64,000 nt of DNA from Candidatus Nanoarchaeia archaeon (GTDB lineage Archaea > Nanobdellota > Nanobdellia > WJKC01): NCBI GenBank assembly GCA_041653515.1, contig JBAZFG010000002.1:125632-189631 (forward strand), given 5' to 3'. Below the pieces are notes generated by a model, which did not search any database, was not told where the DNA came from, and saw only the letters and a program-made list of their open reading frames with translations. Made by a program: the position numbers and the translations under genes. Each line of letters begins with the position of its first letter. Position 1 is the stretch's first letter. Shown piece by piece: positions 7,288 through 63,179 of this stretch.

Positions 7288-8443
7288 TTACCTTTTTTGT
7301 GTTATAAATGTTTTCTTAACGTTGTTCAGCATGTCAGTTAACTGCAGCATTACTTTTTTGGTTGAGTATTGCTTTGCGTAAGCTTTTAGTCCTGGTCGCG
7401 GTCGCTCTTTTAGTAATTTGATTATTGCGTTAGCCCAATTAATTGCTTTATAAGGCTCGACTAACTCACCGTTTTCCTTGTTTACTAACTCGTTAAGCGG
7501 CCTGACGTTGCTGGCCAGCACTGGCTTGCCAAGAGCCCATGACTCAAGCAATACTAGTCCAAACCCTTCAACAGTGCTTGGGTTAACAACGAATTTTGAT
7601 TCACTGATTATCTTTAATTTATCAGCATGGCTGACCCTGCCAGTAAACGTAATACTGTTATTAACTCCGAGCCTGCGCGCGAGTGCCATTCACTGCTTCT
7701 TCATTGGACCATCACCAACTATTACGAACTTGGCTTTAGGGTCACGGCCGAGCACTGAAAGCATAGCCCTAATTATTGTGTTAACGTTCTTGTAGAAAAC
7801 GTGCCGGCCAATAAAACAAAACTGATTCTTGAGTCCGGCTCGCAGGTTTTTGTAATCAGCCAAGTCAATCATACAAGGCATGACTTTGATTGGCCTCCTA
7901 ATACCAGCCTTAATTAAATTATCCCTGCTGACACTGCTGATAGTGTGAATTAATGCTGGCCTGAATTTGAGGATGATTTTCTCAAGCAATGGACCCATAA
8001 TTCCGAGGCCTTTGCTGACACCTATCTGCCTGCTCCACTTACTTTAGAACGGGCCACTTGAGTAAAAATCAAAGATGCTCATCAAATGAGAGATTTTAAG
8101 AAAATAAGAAACTAAATGAGCACTGACTGCCGGCGTGTAAGTATTAGAGTGAATGACGTCGGAGTCCTTAGCAATTTTCAGGCCAGCCCTGAATGACTTA
8201 ATAATAAATGAAGCATTATTCAACAAGCTCATGTTAAGGTGGCCTTTGTAATCAATTGGCCTGTCAACCAGGTAAACTTGATGCTGTCAATCTTCTCAAA
8301 AGAAGTAGTGCCCCTTAATTGCTGGGTGATAACATTGACTTCATGCTGCGCTTAACTAACTCGCGCGCGTACTGAAAGAACAAGTACTCGCCACCCCCAT
8401 AGATTGCTGGCGGGTATAAGTGAATGAATTGAGTTATTTTCAT
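7288..8443 (-). pseudogene. degraded GT4-family glycosyltransferase (frameshifted copy of 10659..11789)
   Basis: Three collinear ORF fragments (133, 102, 62 aa) plus an N-terminal remnant 'MKITQFIHLYPPAIYGGGEYLFFQYAREL' each align to successive parts of the intact 376-aa GT at 10659..11789, with frame breaks; roughly 75-80% nt identity in aligned stretches. Confidence 0.6.
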
Positions 8444-10662: not shown

Positions 10663-11789
10663 ATTAAAGTTTTGAATATATTTTCTAGTAGTGGCGTGAC
10701 TTTCTTGGTTGAGTATTGTTTGGCGTATTTTTTTATTCCTTGTTTATTTTCTTTTAGCATCTTGTTGATTTTATTTGCCCAGTCGATTGATTTGTAAGGT
10801 TCGGCCAGGTCGCCGTTTTCTTTGTTGATTAATTCATTCATTGGCCTGACATTGCTGGCTATTACTGGTTTGCCTAATGCCCATGACTCGAGTATTATTA
10901 TGCCAAATCCTTCGACTGTGCTTGGGTTGACTACGAATTTTGATTCATTTATTATCCTTAATTTATGCTCGTGACTAACTCGGCCAGTGAATAATACGCT
11001 GCTGCTAACCCCTAATCGTCTGGCTAGTGCCATCCATTGTTTTTTCATTGGTCCGTCACCAACTATTATGAATTTGGTTTTCGGGTTCTTGCCAAGCACT
11101 GATGGCATTGCTTTGATGATTGTGTCAACGTTCTTGTAAAAGACATGCCTACCAACATAACAAAATTGGTTCTTCTCTTCAGTTCTTGGCGTCTTGTAAT
11201 CAGTTAAGTCTATCATGCAGGGCACAACTCTTATTGGTCGCTTAACGCCTGCTTTTATCAAGTCCTCTTTACTGGCGTTGCTGATAGTGTGAATCATTGC
11301 TGGCCTGATTTTTAGTATTATTTTTTCCATTAATGGCCCGATTATACTGAGCCCTTTGCTGACTCCGCGCTGACCACTCCAATTATTCCAGAAACTGCCT
11401 TGAGAGTAAACATCAAAGATGCTGATAACATGGGGTATTTTTAAGCAATAGGATACTGCGTGACCACTTAATGCTGGCGCGTAAGTGTTGGAGTGAATGA
11501 TATCAGAATCCTTAGCTATCTTTAATCCTTTTTTGAATGATTTAATGATGAATGAAGCATTGTTCATTAAACTCATATTCAAGTGGCCTTTGTAATCAAT
11601 TGGTTTGCCGACCCGATGGATTTTAACCCCGTTTAATTCTTCATAGCATTTAGTGCCTTTAAGTCGCTGAGTAATAACATTAACTTCATGGCCTCGTTTG
11701 GCTAATTCTTTAGCGTACTGGAAGAACAAGTACTCGCCGCCGCCGTAGATTGCTGGCGGGTATAATTGACAGAACTGGGTTATTTTCAT
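10659..11789 (-). CDS. GT4-family (GT-B) glycosyltransferase
   Basis: C-terminal 'NPSTVEGFGIIILESWALGKPVIAS' E-x7-E-type motif; N-terminal 'LYPPAIYGGGEY'. Confidence 0.75.
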   Translation of the reverse strand: MKITQFCQLYPPAIYGGGEYLFFQYAKELAKRGHEVNVITQRLKGTKCYEELNGVKIHRVGKPIDYKGHLNMSLMNNASFIIKSFKKGLKIAKDSDIIHSNTYAPALSGHAVSYCLKIPHVISIFDVYSQGSFWNNWSGQRGVSKGLSIIGPLMEKIILKIRPAMIHTISNASKEDLIKAGVKRPIRVVPCMIDLTDYKTPRTEEKNQFCYVGRHVFYKNVDTIIKAMPSVLGKNPKTKFIIVGDGPMKKQWMALARRLGVSSSVLFTGRVSHEHKLRIINESKFVVNPSTVEGFGIIILESWALGKPVIASNVRPMNELINKENGDLAEPYKSIDWANKINKMLKENKQGIKKYAKQYSTKKVTPLLENIFKTLI

Positions 11790-35506: not shown

Positions 35507-36897
35507 GCAGAGTTATTAATGTAGAATACTATTAGTTGCGCTTGAGCTGCTGATGGGTATGCTTTGATTGGCATGATGAACGAGTAGTTAAGAGTGTAAG
35601 CATAAGCAGGGTATTGTTCGTAAGCGCTGATAACTAGGAATGAGTAATTACTTACTTGTTGGAGGAATAATTCTTCAGTGGCTGGGAACGCGTCAACTGT
35701 TTTCTCGCTGTAATAAGTTAGTTGTGGCACGCTGTTAGCCATGACGTTGCCTTCGTAAGGCAGTAAGAACTCGCCTGCTTGCTTGACATATAAGTATGAA
35801 TCCTTAGCATTATTAATGCTTGTTAACCCTGTTGGCAGGTTCTCAATAATAATGATTATTGTTATTATCGCTAACGCGTAATTAATGATTTGCTTGTTTT
35901 TACTCACGTAACTAATAATGAAGCTTGCGCCAAGAATAGCTGATAAGCAAGCAAAAGGCAGTAAGTGTATTAGGAACCTAACTTCTTTGACGCTGGTTAA
36001 CAATGAGTAGAACGCTAAGTAAATGAATAAATTAAGTGCTATGAACTGCACTTTCTTATTCTTTAATTTGAAGATGATTGGTATGATGCCAATGAACACT
36101 AGTAAACCCATTAATATACCATAATTAAACAGCATGCTAGTTATGTAATAGAACATGTCACCTGCTTGCGCTCCACCAGTCGCGTTAACATTAAATGATA
36201 GGAATGATAGTGGCGTGTATACTGGGTTGTTGAATACTATGATGTCATAAATCATTAGTGGCGCGTAACCGATTAACGCGCCAAACAACCAATAATAATC
36301 CTTTAATTTTTTCTCTTTATTAATTAATGAGTAAGCAAGGTATACTACGCTCCCAATTATTGCCGTGAACTTAATACTAGCTGCTAAACCCAATAATAAA
36401 CCACTAGGCAACCGCTTGCCTTTAATGAATAATAACGCGCTTAGCACTAATAGGAACGCGCTTGGCACATCAATAGTGAACCGTAGTGACCAGTAAAGGA
36501 AGACCCATTGAAAACACATTATTAACCCTGTAATAATCCCATACTTCTCGCCTAATAATTCCTTACCTAAGTAATAAGACGCGATTGTTAAGCCCAACCC
36601 GAATAAGATGTTAATGAACCTGATTACTAATTCATTATAACCAAAAGGCAATGATAACCCATATAATATTGCTGGGTAAACGATTGACCTGCCATCCCAC
36701 CAACCAGTTGTTGGCGTGCCAATAAACAAGCTTTTAGTCATCACTAAGTATTGAGCCTCATCCCACCAGACAGTGCTATAAGCACTAATTAATGGCAGTC
36801 TTGTTATCAGGAAGACCGCACTGATTAAACCAACCCAGAAGTACTTATTATTCACTAAATCCTTTAAGTTAATCTCGTCATTATCATTCATATTCAA
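35503..36897 (-). CDS. GT-C fold membrane glycosyltransferase (ArnT/PMT-like)
   Basis: 'WWDEAQYLVMTKS' DE motif in the first loop; multi-TM. Confidence 0.5.
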   Translation of the reverse strand: MNMNDNDEINLKDLVNNKYFWVGLISAVFLITRLPLISAYSTVWWDEAQYLVMTKSLFIGTPTTGWWDGRSIVYPAILYGLSLPFGYNELVIRFINILFGLGLTIASYYLGKELLGEKYGIITGLIMCFQWVFLYWSLRFTIDVPSAFLLVLSALLFIKGKRLPSGLLLGLAASIKFTAIIGSVVYLAYSLINKEKKLKDYYWLFGALIGYAPLMIYDIIVFNNPVYTPLSFLSFNVNATGGAQAGDMFYYITSMLFNYGILMGLLVFIGIIPIIFKLKNKKVQFIALNLFIYLAFYSLLTSVKEVRFLIHLLPFACLSAILGASFIISYVSKNKQIINYALAIITIIIIIENLPTGLTSINNAKDSYLYVKQAGEFLLPYEGNVMANSVPQLTYYSEKTVDAFPATEELFLQQVSNYSFLVISAYEQYPAYAYTLNYSFIMPIKAYPSAAQAQLIVFYINNSA

Positions 36898-36945: not shown

Positions 36946-38328
36946 TTAGTTTAAGAGAATCTTTGAAGGTTTAAAGAAATTATTCAGAATGTTCCTAATA
37001 GGTGCTTCCCTGTGTGAGATATTATTGAATATATAAGCTAGTTTGGTAAAGTCTATTAACTCATCGAATGGAATCTTTTCTTTCAGCAGGTAAGTGCCTT
37101 TCCTAATCATGTTGTCATAATCAAGCCATTCCATTGGTTTGATAACACCTTTCTTCTTGAGTAATTCATAATAATCTGCGCCAGGGTCAGGGGTAAATAC
37201 GTAGAAATGAGCAAAGTTAGTTTTATTCTTAATGGCAAAATTAATTGTTTTAATTATAGAATCCCTTGTTTCACCTGGTGCCCCAATGATGTGGCTTGCA
37301 CTAATTTCTATACCAAAAGCCTTTAATTTTTCAATACCTTGGCTTATCTGCCTGATTGTTAAGCATTTGTTCATTGACTTAAGTATTTCATCATCCCCTG
37401 ATTCAACCCCAACAAAAGCTCTCTTGTAACCTGTTTTATGCATTATATTGAGCAAGTCATTATTTATTGTGTCAAGCCGAGTGTTACTGCCCCATGTGAT
37501 GTCAAGTTTTTCTTTTTTAATTAGACTTGTGAATTCAGTGATAAACTTATGATTAGCTGTCATTGTATCATCATAAAACATAATCTTATTGGATTTAGTG
37601 ACGTCAATAACCTGTTTTATTTCATTGATAACACTTGATGGGCTTCTAAAATTAACCTTTTTTCCAAACATTTTTTTAGAAGCACAAAACTTGCAACCAA
37701 AAGGGCATCCTCTTGAAGCTATTAATACATTATAAGTATCTTCTGCCCCAAGTTTTCTATGATTACTTGGTTTGTATTTATCTAATGGGAATAAATCTCT
37801 GGCTGGGAAAGGCAGGTCATTCAGGTCAGTACTGGTTGGTTTTGTGGGGTTTAGGATGATCTTCTTGCCTTTTTTGAATACAATACCATTAACCTCTTCT
37901 AACCTTTGGTTAGCCAGTATCTTAACAATGGTTTCTTCTCCTTCACCTAGCACGCCTATATCAAAACAGTTTAATGAAATGGTTTCTAAAGGTTCTGATG
38001 TGATGTGAATGCCGCCTAGAATTATCTTTGCATTAGTTTTTGATTTTATTTCACTGGCTATCTTAATCGTATTCTTCATAAGAGGGGTTGTTGATGTAAG
38101 ACCTATAAACTTAATGTCCTTTGAGTTAATCCTTTTTATTACATCCTCAATAGTGAATTCTTCAACATTTAAGTCAAGGCATTCAACCCTATAACCTGCT
38201 TTTCTTACGCTTGCGGCAATGTATGCTAGTCCAAGGGGTAAGCTTACTGTTTGGTTTTCCTGTCTTGAGATGTTGAAATGTTTTTTTTCAAAAAAATCTT
38301 TTTGCGGGGGATTAATGAGCAATAACAT
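36946..38328 (-). CDS. B12-binding-domain radical SAM protein (class B rSAM)
   Basis: 'SRGCPFGCKFCAS'; N-terminal 'LPLGLAYIAASVRKAGYRVECLD'; paralog of 181..1704. Confidence 0.7.
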   Translation of the reverse strand: MLLLINPPQKDFFEKKHFNISRQENQTVSLPLGLAYIAASVRKAGYRVECLDLNVEEFTIEDVIKRINSKDIKFIGLTSTTPLMKNTIKIASEIKSKTNAKIILGGIHITSEPLETISLNCFDIGVLGEGEETIVKILANQRLEEVNGIVFKKGKKIILNPTKPTSTDLNDLPFPARDLFPLDKYKPSNHRKLGAEDTYNVLIASRGCPFGCKFCASKKMFGKKVNFRSPSSVINEIKQVIDVTKSNKIMFYDDTMTANHKFITEFTSLIKKEKLDITWGSNTRLDTINNDLLNIMHKTGYKRAFVGVESGDDEILKSMNKCLTIRQISQGIEKLKAFGIEISASHIIGAPGETRDSIIKTINFAIKNKTNFAHFYVFTPDPGADYYELLKKKGVIKPMEWLDYDNMIRKGTYLLKEKIPFDELIDFTKLAYIFNNISHREAPIRNILNNFFKPSKILLN

Positions 38329-38417: not shown

Positions 38418-38573
38418 ATGCGTAAGTACAAGCCAAAGTATTTGTACTTAATTAAACAATTAAAAGATAGAGGTGTTGTGCATACTAAAATAAGGAGTGA
38501 TAAACAGTTATGCATTAAGTTAACACCTACTGGTCATTTTCTGTTAAAAATTTTGAACAAAGCGGGTAATTAA
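38418..38573 (+). CDS. small (51 aa) putative winged-helix DNA-binding protein
   Basis: Below the 60-aa ORF cut-off; 'MRKYKPKYLYLIKQLKDRGVVHTKIRSDKQLCIKLTPTGHFLLKILNKAGN'; TATA-like 'TTTATAAAA' ~25 nt upstream. Confidence 0.25.
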   Translation: MRKYKPKYLYLIKQLKDRGVVHTKIRSDKQLCIKLTPTGHFLLKILNKAGN

Positions 38574-38986
38574 TTCCGTATTAAATTGATGAAATCAATT
38601 ATACCTGGTAATAACTCGTCTTCCTTTAATTTATTAATTTCAATCCATTTTAGGTCCTTTGTTTTATGGTCATCAAGGTTTGGTTGCCCGCTGATTAATT
38701 GTGATTCATAGCATAGTACAATAACGTGTTTTCTATGGTCAGGGTAATCCCATATATTTGTATGAACATATGGAATCATTTGTTTTGGTTTAACAATATA
38801 ACCTGTTTCTTCTAATACTTCTCTGGCCACAGCATCTTCAGGTTTCTCGCCAAAATCAATTTTTCCACCTGGTAATTCCCATTTTAAATGCGCGCCCGGC
38901 ATAATTTCTTCATCCCTTAGTAAAAGTAGTATTTCATTACCTCTTTTAATTAGGGCTGTCGCGACAATAATTATTTGGTCATTCAT
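38570..38986 (-). CDS. NUDIX hydrolase
   Basis: Nudix box 'GGKIDFGEKPEDAVAREVLEETGY'. Confidence 0.7.
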   Translation of the reverse strand: MNDQIIIVATALIKRGNEILLLLRDEEIMPGAHLKWELPGGKIDFGEKPEDAVAREVLEETGYIVKPKQMIPYVHTNIWDYPDHRKHVIVLCYESQLISGQPNLDDHKTKDLKWIEINKLKEDELLPGIIDFINLIRN

Positions 38987-39121
38987 GAATTAAAAATTAC
39001 CAGATAATCCATTAAGTATTTTGTGATTACCTTTTTTAAATTTGATGTTGGTCAGTGATGATTAAACCAACCCAGAAGTACTTATTATTCATTAGGTCTT
39101 TTAGGTTTATTTCATCTTCAT

Positions 39122-40141
39122 TCATATTGTCATCCTCGCTATGATGAATGCTGCCACGCAGAATAATGATTCAATCATCATTAAGAATGGAGTGATGTAT
39201 TCTTCTCGTTTTACTAATCTCATAGCTAAGTGTGTTAGTGAGTAAGTCTTCTTGTACTTAGGTTTTAGTGTGCCATCTTTCTGTAGTTCACCAAGACTGC
39301 TGGCCTTGAATTTCTTACGAGCTTTTAATGCAAACTCAATGAACCAAGGCGCGAACGCTATTAGCGCGAACTTCTCAATATTACCAATAATGATTGACGC
39401 GCCAAACACTGTGCCAACTAAGTATGGCAGTGTGTCGCCTGGCAGGAAACTCGCTGGGTACTTGTTGAATTTAAGGAAGCCTGCAAGACAAGCAGCTGTT
39501 GTTAAAGCAAGTATTGCGCCTTCAATCGTGCCGTAAAAATATGAGTATAAGCCAGTGCCAGTGAGTAATACTAAGCCTAAGCCTGTTTCTAAACCATTCA
39601 TGCCCGCGAGCATATTAGTCGCGTTGCCGCTGAAAATAATGATTAATGGCACAATGATTAGTGGGTAAATAATACCAATATTAACTGGCCCAACAAATGG
39701 AATGCTCACTAAGCTTTGGCCAGCGTTAATAGCCATTAATGGCACAGCAGCTATTAGTGAGATAATCACTTTATGCCATTGTTTTAATCCGATCCGCGTG
39801 TCAATCTCATCCTTATTAGTTCGTTGTTCTGGTTGAATGTTAATATCATCAAGGGTTATTAGTAAGGTTATTGTTAACACGCTTGTTAGGCCGGCGAATA
39901 ATAATGTTAAATTAGTTCCTGCGTTAGTGACAAAGACTGTGATGAAAATATAAGCCATTAAAGCTGTTAGTAAACCAATTGCTATTGGTATGCCACCACT
40001 GGTCGCCATCTTAGGCTTATTTTTCTTCTGGATATCCATTGCCTTCATACCTATTTTCTCAAGGAATCGCTTCAAGTAAGGGGCTATTATTATTGTGGCC
40101 ACAAAACCAGTTATTATTGTTATGATTAATGATTCATCCAT
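39122..40141 (-). CDS. MraY/WecA-family UDP-GlcNAc:dolichyl-P GlcNAc-1-P transferase (AglH-like)
   Basis: 339-aa polytopic protein; 'KPKMATSGGIPIA' P-x-GG loop; 'TLDDIN' DDxxD-like motif; adjacent to aglB. Confidence 0.5.
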   Translation of the reverse strand: MDESLIITIITGFVATIIIAPYLKRFLEKIGMKAMDIQKKNKPKMATSGGIPIAIGLLTALMAYIFITVFVTNAGTNLTLLFAGLTSVLTITLLITLDDINIQPEQRTNKDEIDTRIGLKQWHKVIISLIAAVPLMAINAGQSLVSIPFVGPVNIGIIYPLIIVPLIIIFSGNATNMLAGMNGLETGLGLVLLTGTGLYSYFYGTIEGAILALTTAACLAGFLKFNKYPASFLPGDTLPYLVGTVFGASIIIGNIEKFALIAFAPWFIEFALKARKKFKASSLGELQKDGTLKPKYKKTYSLTHLAMRLVKREEYITPFLMMIESLFCVAAFIIARMTI

Positions 40142-40178
40142 TAAGGAAATGTTAGGGTGATTAGTTTTTTAATTGTTT

Positions 40179-40339
40179 GCCCCCGCAGTTTGGAATAAAC
40201 TTTTTTCAATAAGCAGGGGGATCAGGAAATGCCTAAAACTGAGGGGGATGTGCCCCCGCGGTTTGGAATAAACTTTTTTCAATAAGCAGGGGGATCAGGA
40301 AATGCCTAAAACTGAGGGGGATGTGCCCCCGCGGTTTGG
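40179..40339. repeat. tandem direct repeat, 73-bp unit x 2.2, GC-rich hairpin element
   Basis: Units 40179-40251 and 40252-40324 differ at one position (a/g); a third partial unit 40325-40339 ends at the aglB stop codon; the reverse complement matches the elements at 57371 and 62941. Confidence 0.85.
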
Positions 40340-42958
40340 TTACCAGGCAGGACTGCCGTTATCAACCCATGGCATCATTGCAGTATAATTAATGTGATAA
40401 ATATTAATGTTGGTTGGGTCGTATTGTGATATTAATCCTCTTATGTTTAGTGAGTTACTTGAGTAGACTAATTCAAAACCAGGTATTGTTTCGTTCAATA
40501 AGTATAAGTGAGTCATGAAACGATCATTTAAGTCTGATGGGATGTGAATTAAGCCTCCTTCAATGAATTCAATACAAGAGTCAATGCCGTTAGTCTCATT
40601 AAAGTAAGTGCAGCCATTACCATAATCACAAACGCAATTGTATGGGTGAAGCGTGTTACTGCCCGTAGCTAAGTTATAAACTACTGCTTGTGGCTGACCA
40701 AAAGATTGGTCTTCAGCCATTGGTATTAAAACGTTTACTATGTAACTCTCGCCTTTAGGGAATAATACACCATCAATGATTGTGTCAGCGCCAACATAAC
40801 CTGGTGAGGCTAAGTAATTGAAAACTAGTAGTGTGCTGAATTGTTCAGGATTATACAAGTTATTATCCACTTGCTGGCTGTAAGTGTAAGGTGCGTAATA
40901 ACCTGGCCTGCCACCAATATTAGCCATCTGAACATATTTTAGTATATCATCATCCATGACTAATAAATAATTAGGCCTATTGCCTGTTTCATTATTCTTG
41001 AAGTAATCAAGTGAGTCATAAACCTCTGTCATGTTAAAGCCGCTAAACATTTGGCCGCCAATAACTTCATCCCATACTACTTGGAAGTTACCCCCATCAA
41101 CTGTTGTTGCCCGCTCGCCCATGGTTTGAACCCAGTAACCATAATCCCACCAATGAGTGAATACAGCGTTAGTGTCAGTGTTATTCCTAACCCAACTCAT
41201 TGATTCGCCCCAATCATTAGTGAAGCTTGGAATCATTGTTGAAGCATCTTCAACAATAACATAGTAACTCCATATTACTAATAGTATTGCGACTGCGTAA
41301 ATAGCTGTTGAGTAAACTTTATCACTTGTTATTTTGCTGATTAAATTATTTATCCGCTCAATAGCGTAAGCAGCTAATAACACGAATATTGGGGTGCTAG
41401 CAAAGACAATTCTTATTGCGCCCCTAGTTGCAATAACACTTAAAGCAAACCATAAGATGATTATTAGTTTACTTGGCGTTAACTCACCCCACTTACTGCT
41501 CTTATGGAATTTAATGTAAAATAATATTACTGTTAAAGCCAATAATGGCAGTGTTAGTAAGTAAGTGTTCTCAAAGAATAAATTAATTGCTTCATAACCG
41601 TTTAAGTTAACGAATTTGCTAAACATGAAGAATAAGATGAACACAGTAAACATTATCACTACTGATGTGGCTTTCTTGCCAAACTTACCTAATACTTCTT
41701 GAACTAATAATGCTCCACCAATAACAAATAATGGCACAAACCATTGAAGCCTATGCCACCAGTCAACCCCGTTAGGGTCATAGAACCATGGGGCTTGGTT
41801 TTCAGTAACTGAGACGCAGAAAGCACAAGTGCCAAAAGGGTTTAGTATTGTATCAAGAGCGCCTTGTAGTTTGGCGCCAACATCAAATAATCCAGTTAAT
41901 TGCATTACTGGCAGACCAACCATTATTAATACTGCCATCATTATTACGAAATAAAAATTATCAGGCCACTTCTTGTTCTTGATTAAGTTACTGATGAATA
42001 AATCATAAACAATTTTTAATCCAAGCACTAACGCTGTGATAGTTGGTATTAAGAACATATCAATCATGATTAAACCAAAACCATTATAGCGCAGGGTCAT
42101 TGTAGCGTTCATTAATATTATTGGGATGAACCACGCAAAGTAAGTGATTACGTTTTTATTGCTTAATTTACCCATTAAAGCAAGGAATAGGAATGCTAAG
42201 CCAATGCTGAAGAATAAGAAGTTAGCCCCACCCCAAGTCAGGCTTGATAAGCCAGCTAATACGCCTGATATTAACCCGTAAATTAATGCTTGTTTAGTCT
42301 TATTTGCCCTAATTGATTTGACTAATGCATAAATCATGCTAAACCAAAAGACTGTTGCAAGCGCTTCCTTATCACTAAACCCTGCCATGGTCCTGAATAA
42401 ATATGATGGGATTAATGATAAAAACGCTGTGGCAATTAACGCTGTTTTCTTGTTGAATATTTCTTTAGTCATTAAGAAAAAGAATATCATGCTTATTACA
42501 AACGCAACAACTGGGTAAATCATTGAATAACTCATTAGTTCGCCGCCAAATAATGGGTGAAATATTGTGTATAATCCTGCAACAAAGTAAGACACTAATT
42601 GGTGCTCCTTGAAAGTGCTAAAACCTTCTGGAAAATAACGAAATGAATCCATTTCAGGCAGGGTGCCCTGCTCCACTAGTGTTTCAGTGTAGCGGTAAAA
42701 AACATACGGGTCAAGACCAAGCAATAAACCATTGTATAATGGTATGCTTAGCATCCTAACCCAAGCCCCAACTAATATAATACTAATTAATGCTGCGTAT
42801 AATATTATCTTCTTATTTTCTTTGAGGAATTTTACTGCTTCGCCAAAATTAAGTTCATCCTCATCAGTGGTTGCTGGTTTTTTCTCTTTCTTATCACTGC
42901 TAAACCAGCCTTTAATCTTTCGCCCTATCTCCCCGAAATCAATTTCTTCATCACTCAA
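40340..42958 (-). CDS. aglB: archaeal oligosaccharyltransferase AglB (STT3 family)
   Basis: 'FTHWWDYGYWVQTMG' canonical WWDYG motif; N-terminal 'GLDPYVFYRY' first-loop DxD-type motif; ~13 TM helices plus a C-terminal soluble domain. Confidence 0.85.
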   Translation of the reverse strand: MSDEEIDFGEIGRKIKGWFSSDKKEKKPATTDEDELNFGEAVKFLKENKKIILYAALISIILVGAWVRMLSIPLYNGLLLGLDPYVFYRYTETLVEQGTLPEMDSFRYFPEGFSTFKEHQLVSYFVAGLYTIFHPLFGGELMSYSMIYPVVAFVISMIFFFLMTKEIFNKKTALIATAFLSLIPSYLFRTMAGFSDKEALATVFWFSMIYALVKSIRANKTKQALIYGLISGVLAGLSSLTWGGANFLFFSIGLAFLFLALMGKLSNKNVITYFAWFIPIILMNATMTLRYNGFGLIMIDMFLIPTITALVLGLKIVYDLFISNLIKNKKWPDNFYFVIMMAVLIMVGLPVMQLTGLFDVGAKLQGALDTILNPFGTCAFCVSVTENQAPWFYDPNGVDWWHRLQWFVPLFVIGGALLVQEVLGKFGKKATSVVIMFTVFILFFMFSKFVNLNGYEAINLFFENTYLLTLPLLALTVILFYIKFHKSSKWGELTPSKLIIILWFALSVIATRGAIRIVFASTPIFVLLAAYAIERINNLISKITSDKVYSTAIYAVAILLVIWSYYVIVEDASTMIPSFTNDWGESMSWVRNNTDTNAVFTHWWDYGYWVQTMGERATTVDGGNFQVVWDEVIGGQMFSGFNMTEVYDSLDYFKNNETGNRPNYLLVMDDDILKYVQMANIGGRPGYYAPYTYSQQVDNNLYNPEQFSTLLVFNYLASPGYVGADTIIDGVLFPKGESYIVNVLIPMAEDQSFGQPQAVVYNLATGSNTLHPYNCVCDYGNGCTYFNETNGIDSCIEFIEGGLIHIPSDLNDRFMTHLYLLNETIPGFELVYSSNSLNIRGLISQYDPTNINIYHINYTAMMPWVDNGSPAW

Positions 42959-57336: not shown

Positions 57337-57488
57337 TTAGAAATCACTGAGTTTTTTCTGCTTAGTCCCTAACCGCAGGGAGGGGTGACCCCTCCCTTCA
57401 GTTTTAGGGTAATCCTGATTCCCACCCCCCTACGATTGTAATTATGCCAGAGACATGTTAGAAATCACTGAGTTTTTTCTGCTTAGTC
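57337..57488. repeat. GC-rich hairpin element (57371-57430) bracketed by a perfect 31-bp direct repeat (57337-57367 / 57458-57488)
   Basis: 'ttagaaatcactgagttttttctgcttagtc' occurs twice; the second copy is the last 10 codons plus stop of nucS; between them lies 'aaccgcagggaggggtgacccctcccttcagttttagggtaatcctgattcccacc'. Confidence 0.8.
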
Positions 57489-58210
57489 TTATCAACTATG
57501 TTCCTGTTTGGTGGTTCTACTTGGCAGAACTTAAAGCTCCAGTCATGGAGCATTTGTTCAGCGTTCTTAGTGATGCCTGGCGCTGCGATGTAACCAATGA
57601 CTTTGTCAATTCCTTTAGCTGCCTTGATTCTCTCAACGTAGCGCCTTAGTTGTTGGACCGCGCTAAGCCCGGCAGTCACTCGCTTACACTCAATAATTAT
57701 TAATGCTCCTTCACCATCATGGCCCATCACGTCAATAAAACCATATTTTGTTTGTTCTTCAAGGCTGACTGGCCTAAAGTCAATGCTAATAATATGTGGG
57801 TGCTCATAAATCATGCGCGCCATGTCAGCTTCACTGCCCATAATCATTACTTCTTCATCATCGCTTAGTTGGCCTGAGATTAGTAAGTCAATGCTGGTTA
57901 TTTTAATGACCATTTGTTCTCTTGGGTTGATTGATTCAGCAGTGATGAATAATGAGTCGCCAGCTTCAACCCTGATGCTCGCGCCTTCTTTTATCCAGTT
58001 AACTGGGTTCCTGCCTGTTGGTTTGTGAACTAATAGTGTTTTGTCTGTTTTGATGGTGACTGCCCTGCCGCCCCGCTCGAGCTTTGAGTAAGCCCTGCCT
58101 TCATACTTAACCTCGCACTCGCAGTAAAGTGTGATTAACTCGTTTCGCTTGAGTGCTTGGTCTAATACGTTCTTGGTTGTATCAAAATCAGGTTTAACAT
58201 AATTGCTCAT
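57458..58210 (-). CDS. nucS: endonuclease NucS/EndoMS
   Basis: C-terminal RecB-like nuclease motif 'GFIDVMGHDGEGALIIIECKR'; N-terminal dimerisation/ssDNA-binding-like region. Confidence 0.7.
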   Translation of the reverse strand: MSNYVKPDFDTTKNVLDQALKRNELITLYCECEVKYEGRAYSKLERGGRAVTIKTDKTLLVHKPTGRNPVNWIKEGASIRVEAGDSLFITAESINPREQMVIKITSIDLLISGQLSDDEEVMIMGSEADMARMIYEHPHIISIDFRPVSLEEQTKYGFIDVMGHDGEGALIIIECKRVTAGLSAVQQLRRYVERIKAAKGIDKVIGYIAAPGITKNAEQMLHDWSFKFCQVEPPNRNIVDKTKQKKLSDF

Positions 58211-62791: not shown

Positions 62792-62935
62792 GGGCCCGTA
62801 GCGCAGTTTGGATAGCGCGACAGGCTTCTACACTCGACGCTTCGCGTCTCGTTCCGTCCTTCGGACGGCCGCTCGCTTAAAACGAGCGGGGGTGAGGATA
62901 CCTGTAGGTCGTGGGTTCAAATCCCTCCGGGCTCG
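62792..62935 (+). tRNA. tRNA-Arg(TCT) with 69-nt intron at canonical position 37/38
   Basis: Acceptor GGGCCCG/CGGGCTC, D-stem GCGC/GCGC, anticodon stem ACAGG/CCTGT separated by 'CTTCTA'+intron+'A'; T-loop TTCAAAT; one T-stem mismatch; the intron carries two hairpins (ccgtcc-ttc-ggacgg; gctcg-cttaaaa-cgagc). Confidence 0.7.
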
Positions 62936-62940
62936 CACGA

Positions 62941-62995
62941 AAACCGCAGGGAGGGGAGACCCCTCCCTTCAGTTCATCTCCTGATTCCCACCTCC
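62941..62995 (+). repeat. GC-rich hairpin element, copy immediately 3' of tRNA-Arg
   Basis: 'aaccgcagggaggggagacccctcccttcagtt...cctgattcccacc' is nearly identical to 57371-57430; 9-bp stem agggagggg/cccctccct. Confidence 0.8.
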
Positions 62996-63179
62996 TTGAC
63001 AATTTGCGCCAGGGGTGCTGAAATATTAATCTGCACGAAGTTTTGGATGATTAGTCCAATTTACTCCGGGCTCACACTCAAACTCGGCTACGCCTCGTTT
63101 TCGTTCTGTTTCGCTAGAAGGCTTGTTGTTTTTTAGAGCTACAAACTTATAATTATTAATTGCATTGTTTTTTAACTGG

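Follow-up and report, generated by a model that had tools for sequence, protein, structure and literature searches.

The window, the whole 64,000-nt stretch of Candidatus Nanoarchaeia archaeon DNA that was analyzed, carries a tandem array of a GC-rich hairpin element next to the aglB gene. The aglB open reading frame (ORF; 40340–42958, minus strand) encodes an STT3/AglB protein of 872 aa that was 100% identical to the NCBI entry 'STT3 domain-containing protein [Candidatus Nanoarchaeia archaeon]', and the array lies upstream of a Glycos_transf_4 ORF of 339 aa on the same strand (39122–40141). Tandem Repeats Finder (TRF) returned one strong array in the window, at 40178–40339, with a period of 73, 2.2 copies, 98% matches and a score of 317, and the same two units were recovered by a second repeat search of the window. 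This agreed with a first-pass annotation, which had described a 73-bp repeat of 2.2 copies that ends at the aglB stop and occupies the space before the promoter of the next gene; position 40339 directly adjoins the TAA of aglB. The annotation had also listed near-identical units with one A/G difference and a 15-nt partial unit. The difference is real but lies in the partial unit, a stub that is in fact 16 nt long (40193–40178), and in the minus-strand phase where units start with CCA-AACCGC the two full units (40339–40267 and 40266–40194) were identical at 73 of 73 positions. The contrast in composition that had drawn attention to the repeat was also found, as the element core has a G+C content of 56–60% compared to ~37% for the window.

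AglB homologues at 59–62% identity share the gene order SpoIIM, STT3, Glycos_transf_4 and Glyco_transf_22. The spacer between the STT3 and transferase genes was 34–37 nt long in four syntenic relatives and contained a TTTAAAAG-type box, whereas the corresponding spacer in the window was 198 nt, made up of the 162-nt array and 36 nt. Thus, the whole array, including the stub, is an insertion, and it was placed exactly between the aglB stop codon and the downstream promoter region. When a covariance model of the element was run over 50 kb of the orthologous loci in the relatives, it found no copy. Because of the spacer comparison and because similar stubs occur at two other loci (L001 and L101), the stub is derived from the element and not from host sequence. 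The insertion set the aglB stop and the downstream promoter 162 nt apart, with no sign of host use.

The covariance model found exactly four full copies in the window, with scores of 66.3, 62.9, 62.8 and 48.3 bits and E-values of 1e-11 or lower. Two of these are the array units, and the other two confirmed by formal alignment and by score the similarity to elements at 57371 and 62941 that had been noticed at first pass. The copy at 57368–57457 was inserted antisense just past the stop codon of nucS (57458–58210, minus strand; Pfam NucS_N/NucS_C) and is flanked by a 31-nt exact repeat. In L118, a metagenomic relative with a 90% identical NucS, '...gtgatttcTAA' runs straight into 'aaatttaaaaag' and the next gene, which is the empty site for this insertion. 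Presence/absence differences at two loci thus already contradict the view that the copies represent shared orthologous sites. The remaining copy starts just after a tRNA-Arg(TCT) gene and is flanked by a 14-nt repeat. This tRNA gene has a 69-nt intron at position 39/40; it was found by Rfam and by the intron mode of ARAGORN and was missed by default ARAGORN. The first-pass annotation had said that a lack of further copies and of similarity would speak against it, and both were clearly present. What it had missed was that the array is an insertion, that the family extends over several phyla, and that the other two copies are bounded by target duplications of 31 and 14 nt (Table 1).

Table 1. 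Copies of the hairpin element in the window, their parts and their insertion sites
Feature	Position	Strand	Description
Full unit 1, aglB-proximal	40267–40339	−	73 nt; TRF and sequence; covariance model match 40282–40340, 62.8 bits
Unit 1, 5′ part		−	Prefix CCA, AACCGC, purine arm GGGGG (40330–40326), loop CACAT
Unit 1, middle		−	Pyrimidine arm CCCCC (40320–40316), TCAGTT, linker TTAGGCATTT, CCTGAT (40299–40294)
Unit 1, 3′ part		−	Third-strand run CCCCC (40293–40289), AT-rich tail to 40267
Full unit 2	40194–40266	−	Same sequence as unit 1; covariance model match 40209–40267, 62.9 bits
Stub CCAAACTGCGGGGGCA	40178–40193	−	Start of a third unit (16 nt, one mismatch); the 16-nt repeat occurs three times
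aglB stop codon TAA	40340–40342	−	Insertion junction immediately 3′
Native aglB–Glycos_transf_4 spacer	40142–40177	−	36 nt with A/T box ATTAAAAAAC; matches the 34–37-nt spacers of relatives
Family copy at nucS	57368–57457	+	90 nt; hairpin GGGAGGGG-TGA-CCCCTCCC; covariance model 66.3 bits
Target duplication copy 1 at nucS	57337–57367	+	31-nt exact repeat; nucS stop and the 28 nt before it as a pseudo-copy
Target duplication copy 2 at nucS	57458–57488	+	31 nt; genuine nucS 3′ end (last 28 nt plus TAA)
tRNA-Arg(TCT), target of the third insertion	62792–62936	+	Rfam RF00005, 49.7 bits; ARAGORN intron mode
Family copy at tRNA-Arg	62939–63063	+	~125 nt with tail; starts 2–3 nt after tRNA-Arg(TCT); covariance model 48.3 bits
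Target duplication copy 1 at tRNA-Arg	62925–62938	+	14 nt; tRNA 3′ end plus 2–3 nt of trailer
Target duplication copy 2 at tRNA-Arg	63064–63077	+	14 nt, 1 mismatch; pseudo-copy of the tRNA 3′ end

Archaeal and bacterial contigs, one genome per species, were searched with the composite motif AACCGCRGGG-N(6-24)-CCCYTCAGTT-N(4-18)-CCTGAT. The motif matched at least 113 loci, at least 111 of them archaeal, in ~60 metagenome-assembled genomes (MAGs), with up to 7 loci from a single MAG among the matches listed. The archaeal hosts were labeled Micrarchaeota, Aenigmatarchaeota, Iainarchaeota, Altiarchaeota and Woesearchaeota, and further matches came from poorly labeled archaea such as 'uncultured archaeon', 'Nanobdellati', 'Methanobacteriota' and 'Halobacteria' bins. 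The covariance model recovered 117 copies in 685 kb of the matched loci. The sole bacterial matches among those listed were two from Spirulina (L009 6485–6537 and L033 394–446); they lack the G/C hairpin, represent one orthologous site and were set aside as a chance match. No match came from a motif scan of viral contigs, and 0 came from metagenomes scanned for the subfamily to which the window's copies belong. At the Rfam gathering threshold only tRNA was found in the whole window, and at an E-value threshold the best match at the locus had E = 0.23, far below gathering; no membership in Rfam families was seen, including hammerhead, twister, HgcC-type GC-rich archaeal small RNAs and C/D small RNAs. 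By inspection, the core sequences did not fit a C/D box, a hammerhead, a twister or a group II domain V. Literature searches, which included literal sequence strings, found no description of the element, and the combination of a hairpin–triplex fold with long and variable target duplications was not matched to any described element class. The repeat is a real finding and more than a local tandem repeat; it is a tandem member of a family of miniature mobile elements of DPANN archaea and Altiarchaeota that appears to be undescribed. Three groups of copies had lineage-specific 3′ extensions with one or two extra conserved hairpins: an Altiarchaeota type (L012, L075, L094 and L111; e.g. GTGGGG...CCCCAC followed by ATCGCATTA), a group in CSMAG_931 (L002, L054, L077, L091 and L110) and one in Aenigmatarchaeota (L004, L027, L057 and L103). 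The mobile unit therefore is modular, with a constant 5′ module and a lineage-specific 3′ module. Many copies, perhaps by chance, were located at or near contig ends (e.g. L004, L013, L035, L052 and L074).

The fold was analyzed on an alignment of 55 sequences. The constant module of ~55–60 nt consists of 5′-C-N-R-AACCGC, a purine arm, a loop, a pyrimidine arm, TCAGTT, a linker of ~10 nt, CCTGAT and a pyrimidine run. The module folds into a single long, imperfect hairpin that extends from position −3 to the fifth linker base, in which 95% of the cells pair compared to 85.9% after shuffling (0 of 500 shuffles reached the observed value), and this register was better than all slid registers. RNAalifold independently yielded the same long hairpin. 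The pair between position −2 and linker base 4 was CG in 28, UA in 12 and GC in 10 sequences, with a mutual information of 0.87 bit, and position −4 did not covary, which places the 5′ boundary of the element at −3. In three divergent and independent copies, a change from AACCGC to AAACGC was offset by a change from TCAGTT to TCATTT (C3:G4 to A:T), and the hairpin loop and the linker were the only places that tolerated large insertions. An earlier version of the fold had the linker closed by a TCAG:CTGA helix and a pseudoknot between the 5′ end and the linker; the TCAG and CTGA blocks are invariant. The helix was dropped because the divergent copies pair the G of TCAGTT with C3 of AACCGC, and RNAalifold gave one continuous hairpin. 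The GGGGG/CCCCC stem recognized in the first-pass annotation exists, but it is merely part of this longer fold, which also includes a third strand of the triplex type.

The run that follows CCTGAT is the parallel complement of the purine arm, and thus the mirror of the pyrimidine arm, and is not a Watson–Crick partner. When aligned in the parallel register, 645 of 742 positions fit (87%) compared to 70.8 ± 1.1% with permuted partners, and a separate program counted 79.5% compared to 64.3 ± 1.8% (0 of 500), with the parallel register being the best of seven. Antiparallel Watson–Crick pairing of the downstream C-run with the G-arm, as in an alternative hairpin or an attenuator, reached only 72% at its best offset. 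Where the hairpin pair was not Watson–Crick, the third strand followed the pyrimidine arm in 17 of 22 cases. A homopurine–homopyrimidine helix with mirror symmetry is the classic requirement for a triplex, both in H-DNA and in RNA triple helices. The predicted triples would be C+·G–C and T·A–T on the AACCGC strand, or G·G–C and A·A–T on its complement. The hairpin of the element is thus accompanied by a mirror-symmetric third strand whose covariation matches that of a triple helix, a triplex signature at the level of sequence only. Signals for a natural triple helix that, like this covariation in the parallel register, come purely from comparison are rare. H-DNA mirror repeats and RNA triple helices such as those of ENE and MALAT1 3′ ends likewise combine a purine–pyrimidine helix with a third strand in the Hoogsteen (parallel or mirror) register, and the smallest elements carry the third strand at the very end of the unit, as do triple helices that protect 3′ ends. 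In contrast to ENE-type helices, which are rich in U·A–U and clamp an A-tract, the triples here would be C+·G–C (or G·G–C on the other strand) in a dispersed mobile repeat known from sequence alone.

Flanking direct repeats of 13–49 nt were found around ~40 of 102 testable copies, whereas the maximum in shuffled controls was 12 nt. Their length was variable, from 14 to 37 nt and up to 49 nt overall, and both 14 and 31 nt occurred inside this window. The partner repeats all lay within ~210 nt of each other, and no long-range direct repeats were present in the matched loci, so versions that carry cargo are absent from these loci. For the analysis of ends and junctions we used the 24 elements that were cleanly bounded by duplications, which were 55–191 nt long. 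The left repeat stopped 0–6 nt before AACCGC, and the C-N-R-AACCGC end was always the precise junction. The other end was variable, with tails of 0–140 nt, and the three smallest elements (55–58 nt) stopped right after the pyrimidine run. Terminal inverted repeats (TIRs) were not found at the ends of any of the 24 elements. An overlap of at least 2 nt between the duplicated target and the C-N-R prefix was present in 8 of 24 junctions, some of which are related to one another, compared to ~1.5 expected. The element has no coding capacity; a 19-codon ORF on the plus strand of the unit was rejected because differences in hairpin length shift the frame and the ORF is not conserved. The neighbors within ±2.5 kb were housekeeping genes, all-versus-all clustering of the ORFs in this range revealed no shared mobility gene (the most recurrent protein family was present at no more than 4 of 113 loci), and no parent element was found within 8 kb of any copy.

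Tandem arrays are a trait of the family. The array at L001, adjoining a tRNA-Phe gene, had two units and a 51-nt stub, L101 had one unit and an 11-nt stub, L035 and L094 had three units each, and L059 had two units compared to one at the paralogous tRNA locus L016 of the same MAG. The stubs in the window, L001 and L101 all kept the C-N-R-AACCGC end and were located on the tail side of the array. In some copies, secondary insertions of 18 to ~100 nt were located exactly in the hairpin loop or the linker (L052 1594–1671, L071 455–530, L083 7716–7793, L001 2329–2491, L094 430–539 and L024 1450–1560), and one of these was seen more than once, as an 18-nt insert with a similar sequence each time (ACACATGAATTATCCATG in L071). 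Such insertions point to either nested insertions or expandable peripheral loops.

Transfer RNA genes were frequent targets. While the background was one tRNA per 18.5 kb, 23 of 119 copies were within 300 nt of a tRNA, and 22 of these 23 were located 3′ of or within it, in either orientation. Seven copies started 0–5 nt after the end of a tRNA on the same strand, and a few were found inside tRNA genes, at position 37/38 (L023 and L072) or in the T-loop (L069 and L078). The T-loop interruptions, at ~58/59, were found in the tRNA-Lys and tRNA-Arg genes of two Micrarchaeota MAGs (L069 352–537 and L078 3613–3832), consist of element plus tail and both open with the same GGGTTCGAACGAAATCCC; no bulge-helix-bulge could be drawn for them by inspection, for which no dedicated tool was used. 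They may be pseudogenes, degenerate duplications or genes that are spliced by another route. In two tRNA-Ser genes (L072 5311–5497 and L023 1209–1400), the element, antisense to the AACCGC orientation, was located inside a 101–106-nt insert at the canonical 37/38 intron position. The insert in L072 is closed by a 7-bp helix, CGGAACC/GGTTCCG, that is built from the terminus of the element itself, which may have allowed the insertion to persist as an intron that can be spliced.

Taken together, we consider it very probable that the array is a tandem insertion, with two full units and a 16-nt stub, of a miniature, non-coding and non-autonomous mobile element whose family occurs widely among DPANN archaea and Altiarchaeota. 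How such an element would be copied is a separate question, and primed synthesis from a small template is a plausible but tentative answer. In this model, a free target 3′-OH, frequently one at a tRNA gene's 3′ end or directly past a stop codon, would anneal by a microhomology of a few bases to the end of a small single-stranded template and would then be extended across it. Synthesis that jumped to, or ran round onto, another copy of the template would give head-to-tail arrays ending in a stub with the start-of-synthesis end, and a staggered break in the second strand would give a long and variable target duplication. The arrays may also grow later by unequal recombination between repeats. 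Primed extension would fit because there is one precise and one variable end, because duplications vary within a genome, because junctions show microhomology and stubs are polar, and because there are neither inverted repeats nor a linked enzyme. The logic would be that of target-primed reverse transcription (TPRT), although the template could equally be single-stranded DNA; like the copying itself, the RNA or DNA nature of the template and the enzyme are inferred.

Several observations weigh against the overall interpretation. About 60% of the copies had no detectable target duplication, and no host target duplication was visible at the aglB array. A mobilizing enzyme, whether reverse transcriptase, transposase or integrase, was not identified, and none was linked to the element within the loci examined. 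Several of the 'invariant' positions were fixed by the construction of the strict search pattern, and the counts are not phylogenetically independent, as many of the copies share a MAG with others. Runs of C+·G–C are unfavorable at neutral pH and purine-motif triplexes of RNA are poorly documented, which makes the triplex one read from covariation only. The folding strand is also ambiguous. Four observations favored the complement: the invariant C·A, which becomes U·G on the complement, the A·C closing pairs, the third strand that follows the pyrimidine arm, and the minimum free energy, as the complement was more stable in 54 of 55 sequences and had better z-scores. In contrast, pair 5:45, which was G·U in 29, G–C in 12 and A–U in 7 sequences, favored the AACCGC strand. 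This could mean that both strands fold, as in a structure at the DNA level, or that the data are too few.

The variable duplications, the enriched junction microhomology, the variable tails and the absence of a linked enzyme would also be compatible with an enzyme-free spread by template switching during replication, through fork stalling or microhomology-mediated break-induced replication. The hairpin or triplex would stall forks, and the sequence is indeed a mirror repeat of the H-DNA type; the nascent 3′ end would copy another element and return upstream of its departure point, leaving a duplication of variable length and sometimes donor flank as a 'tail'. A 2.2-kb insertion with a ~66-nt target duplication in the window (see below) could be a sign that insertion with duplication is a general process in this genome. 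However, the CNR-AACCGC end is precisely the same across phyla and is located at the base of the fold, a boundary that random switching should not respect unless the template had a defined end, and conservation across phyla together with covariation implies selection on a folded molecule and not passive copying, which makes template switching unlikely. We find it quite unlikely that the element is a derivative of a conventional DNA transposon, a MITE (a miniature transposable element with inverted repeats) mobilized in trans by a transposase or a casposase-like integrase with long staggered cuts. Such cuts are made by IS1634/IS1549 elements, which are a precedent for long and variable direct repeats in prokaryotes, and casposons, with duplications of 14–15 bp, are a precedent for targeting the 3′ ends of tRNA genes, the sites preferred here. 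Like MITEs, including the Sulfolobus SM elements of archaea, the family is small, non-coding, non-autonomous, multi-copy and dispersed in either orientation, with target duplications. In contrast, MITEs have TIRs that match a parent insertion sequence and a short duplication of fixed length set by the parent transposase, while the family described here lacks TIRs and shows a variable end on one side and duplications from 14 to 37 nt or more within a single genome. IS1634/IS1549 elements and casposons are kilobase-sized, encode their own enzyme and have TIRs, and casposon duplications are fixed in length; near the copies no transposase or Cas1 gene or any other protein recurred, and no full-length parent was present within 8 kb. 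Arrays with polar stubs are also not expected from cut-and-paste chemistry.

The targets mimic classic integrase sites (the anticodon loop, T-loop and 3′ end of tRNA genes) and the duplication leaves the target gene with an intact 3′ end, as would be the case if the direct repeats were attL and attR and the conserved module were an arm or recognition site left behind by site-specific integration after deletion of the cargo. Against this, the repeat differs for each insertion, so that a separate attP copy of the target would be required for every element, and the segments between the repeats are only 55–191 nt. With no integrase or cargo between repeats that lie within ~210 nt, no recurrent integrase genes nearby, no long-range repeats, no viral or proviral matches, and an aglB array that lacks a host repeat, we regard such remnants as extremely unlikely. 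It is also very unlikely that the element is a cis-regulatory or RNA-processing element of the host, such as a terminator, a stabilizer of 3′ ends or a processing signal, that happens to be repeated. The array is located precisely where the stop codon of one gene is followed by the promoter of the next, and its structure is stable. For the seven copies directly behind a tRNA on the same strand, co-transcription and release through processing of the tRNA 3′ end are conceivable. However, the orientation relative to flanking ORFs was unbiased (18, 17, 16 and 14 in the four classes) where an intrinsic terminator or another gene-oriented 3′ element would have a consistent one, relatives with the same operon layout lack the element in their orthologous spacers, and copies were found antisense to genes and inside tRNA genes. 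The role in the ending or processing of transcripts implied by the first-pass annotation is thus unsupported.

Among known systems, repetitive extragenic palindromic sequences and their hairpin-forming doublets (REP/REPIN) are the closest in appearance, being short, GC-rich, hairpin-forming, non-coding, high-copy and extragenic repeats that are often located just past stop codons and sometimes in tandem or clustered. The imperfect palindrome, extragenic location and high copy number were all seen here as well. In contrast, REPs insert without duplicating the target, share a conserved tetranucleotide at the 5′ end and come with a linked gene for a REP-associated tyrosine transposase (RAYT, a Y1 transposase), whereas ~40% of the copies here have duplications of 13–49 nt, the element has a mirror-repeat third strand, no RAYT or other protein recurred in the neighborhoods of the copies, and the hosts are DPANN archaea and Altiarchaeota. 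With short interspersed nuclear elements (SINEs) and other eukaryotic retroposons without long terminal repeats that move by TPRT, the family shares one precise and one variable end, variable duplications, microhomology, truncated copies, the lack of coding capacity and an affinity for tRNA. The reverse transcriptase of Mauriceville-type retroplasmids, which can be grouped with these systems, initiates on a structured 3′ end. The differences are that there is no A-rich tail, no RNA polymerase III promoter logic and no identified partner reverse transcriptase here, and none was seen among the neighboring ORFs within ±2.5 kb of the copies. To our knowledge, retroposons of the SINE or TPRT type are not known in archaea. 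We consider it rather doubtful, but worth stating, that the mobile element is a prokaryotic counterpart of SINEs, in which a structured RNA of ~57 nt with its ends locked in the hairpin and triple helix would be copied into the ends of tRNA genes and other genes by TPRT with template jumping. If so, it would be the first RNA-mediated, non-intron and non-autonomous retroposon family in archaea, and the triple helix would be a recognition or stabilizing module.

DPANN archaea have tiny and streamlined genomes with few recognized mobile elements. A miniature element of 55–130 nt without a protein that has spread through at least five phylum-level lineages points to a route of mobilization not yet described in prokaryotes. 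For annotation, too, the element is relevant, as it interrupts or adjoins tRNA genes and creates pseudo 3′ ends of genes, and its tandem arrays can break MAG assemblies.

Two other repeats were noted in the window. A duplication of ~66 nt with 84% identity (36822–36887 and 39059–39124) among minus-strand genes copies the 5′ end of a PMT/Glyco_transf_22-like gene and brackets a 2.2-kb segment with a NUDIX gene (38570–38986) and a B12-binding radical-SAM gene (36946–38328). In syntenic relatives, Glycos_transf_4 overlaps Glyco_transf_22 directly without this segment, and a remnant start codon at the segment still overlaps the transferase stop (ATGA). Thus, the operon has undergone two insertions, and this second one also has a long target duplication, although its borders carry no hairpin element. 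The repeat families D1, D2 and D11 connect 7347–8443 with 10694–11789 at 73–82% identity and a spacing of ~3345 nt, which indicates a tandem pair of paralogous gene segments that is unrelated to the hairpin element.
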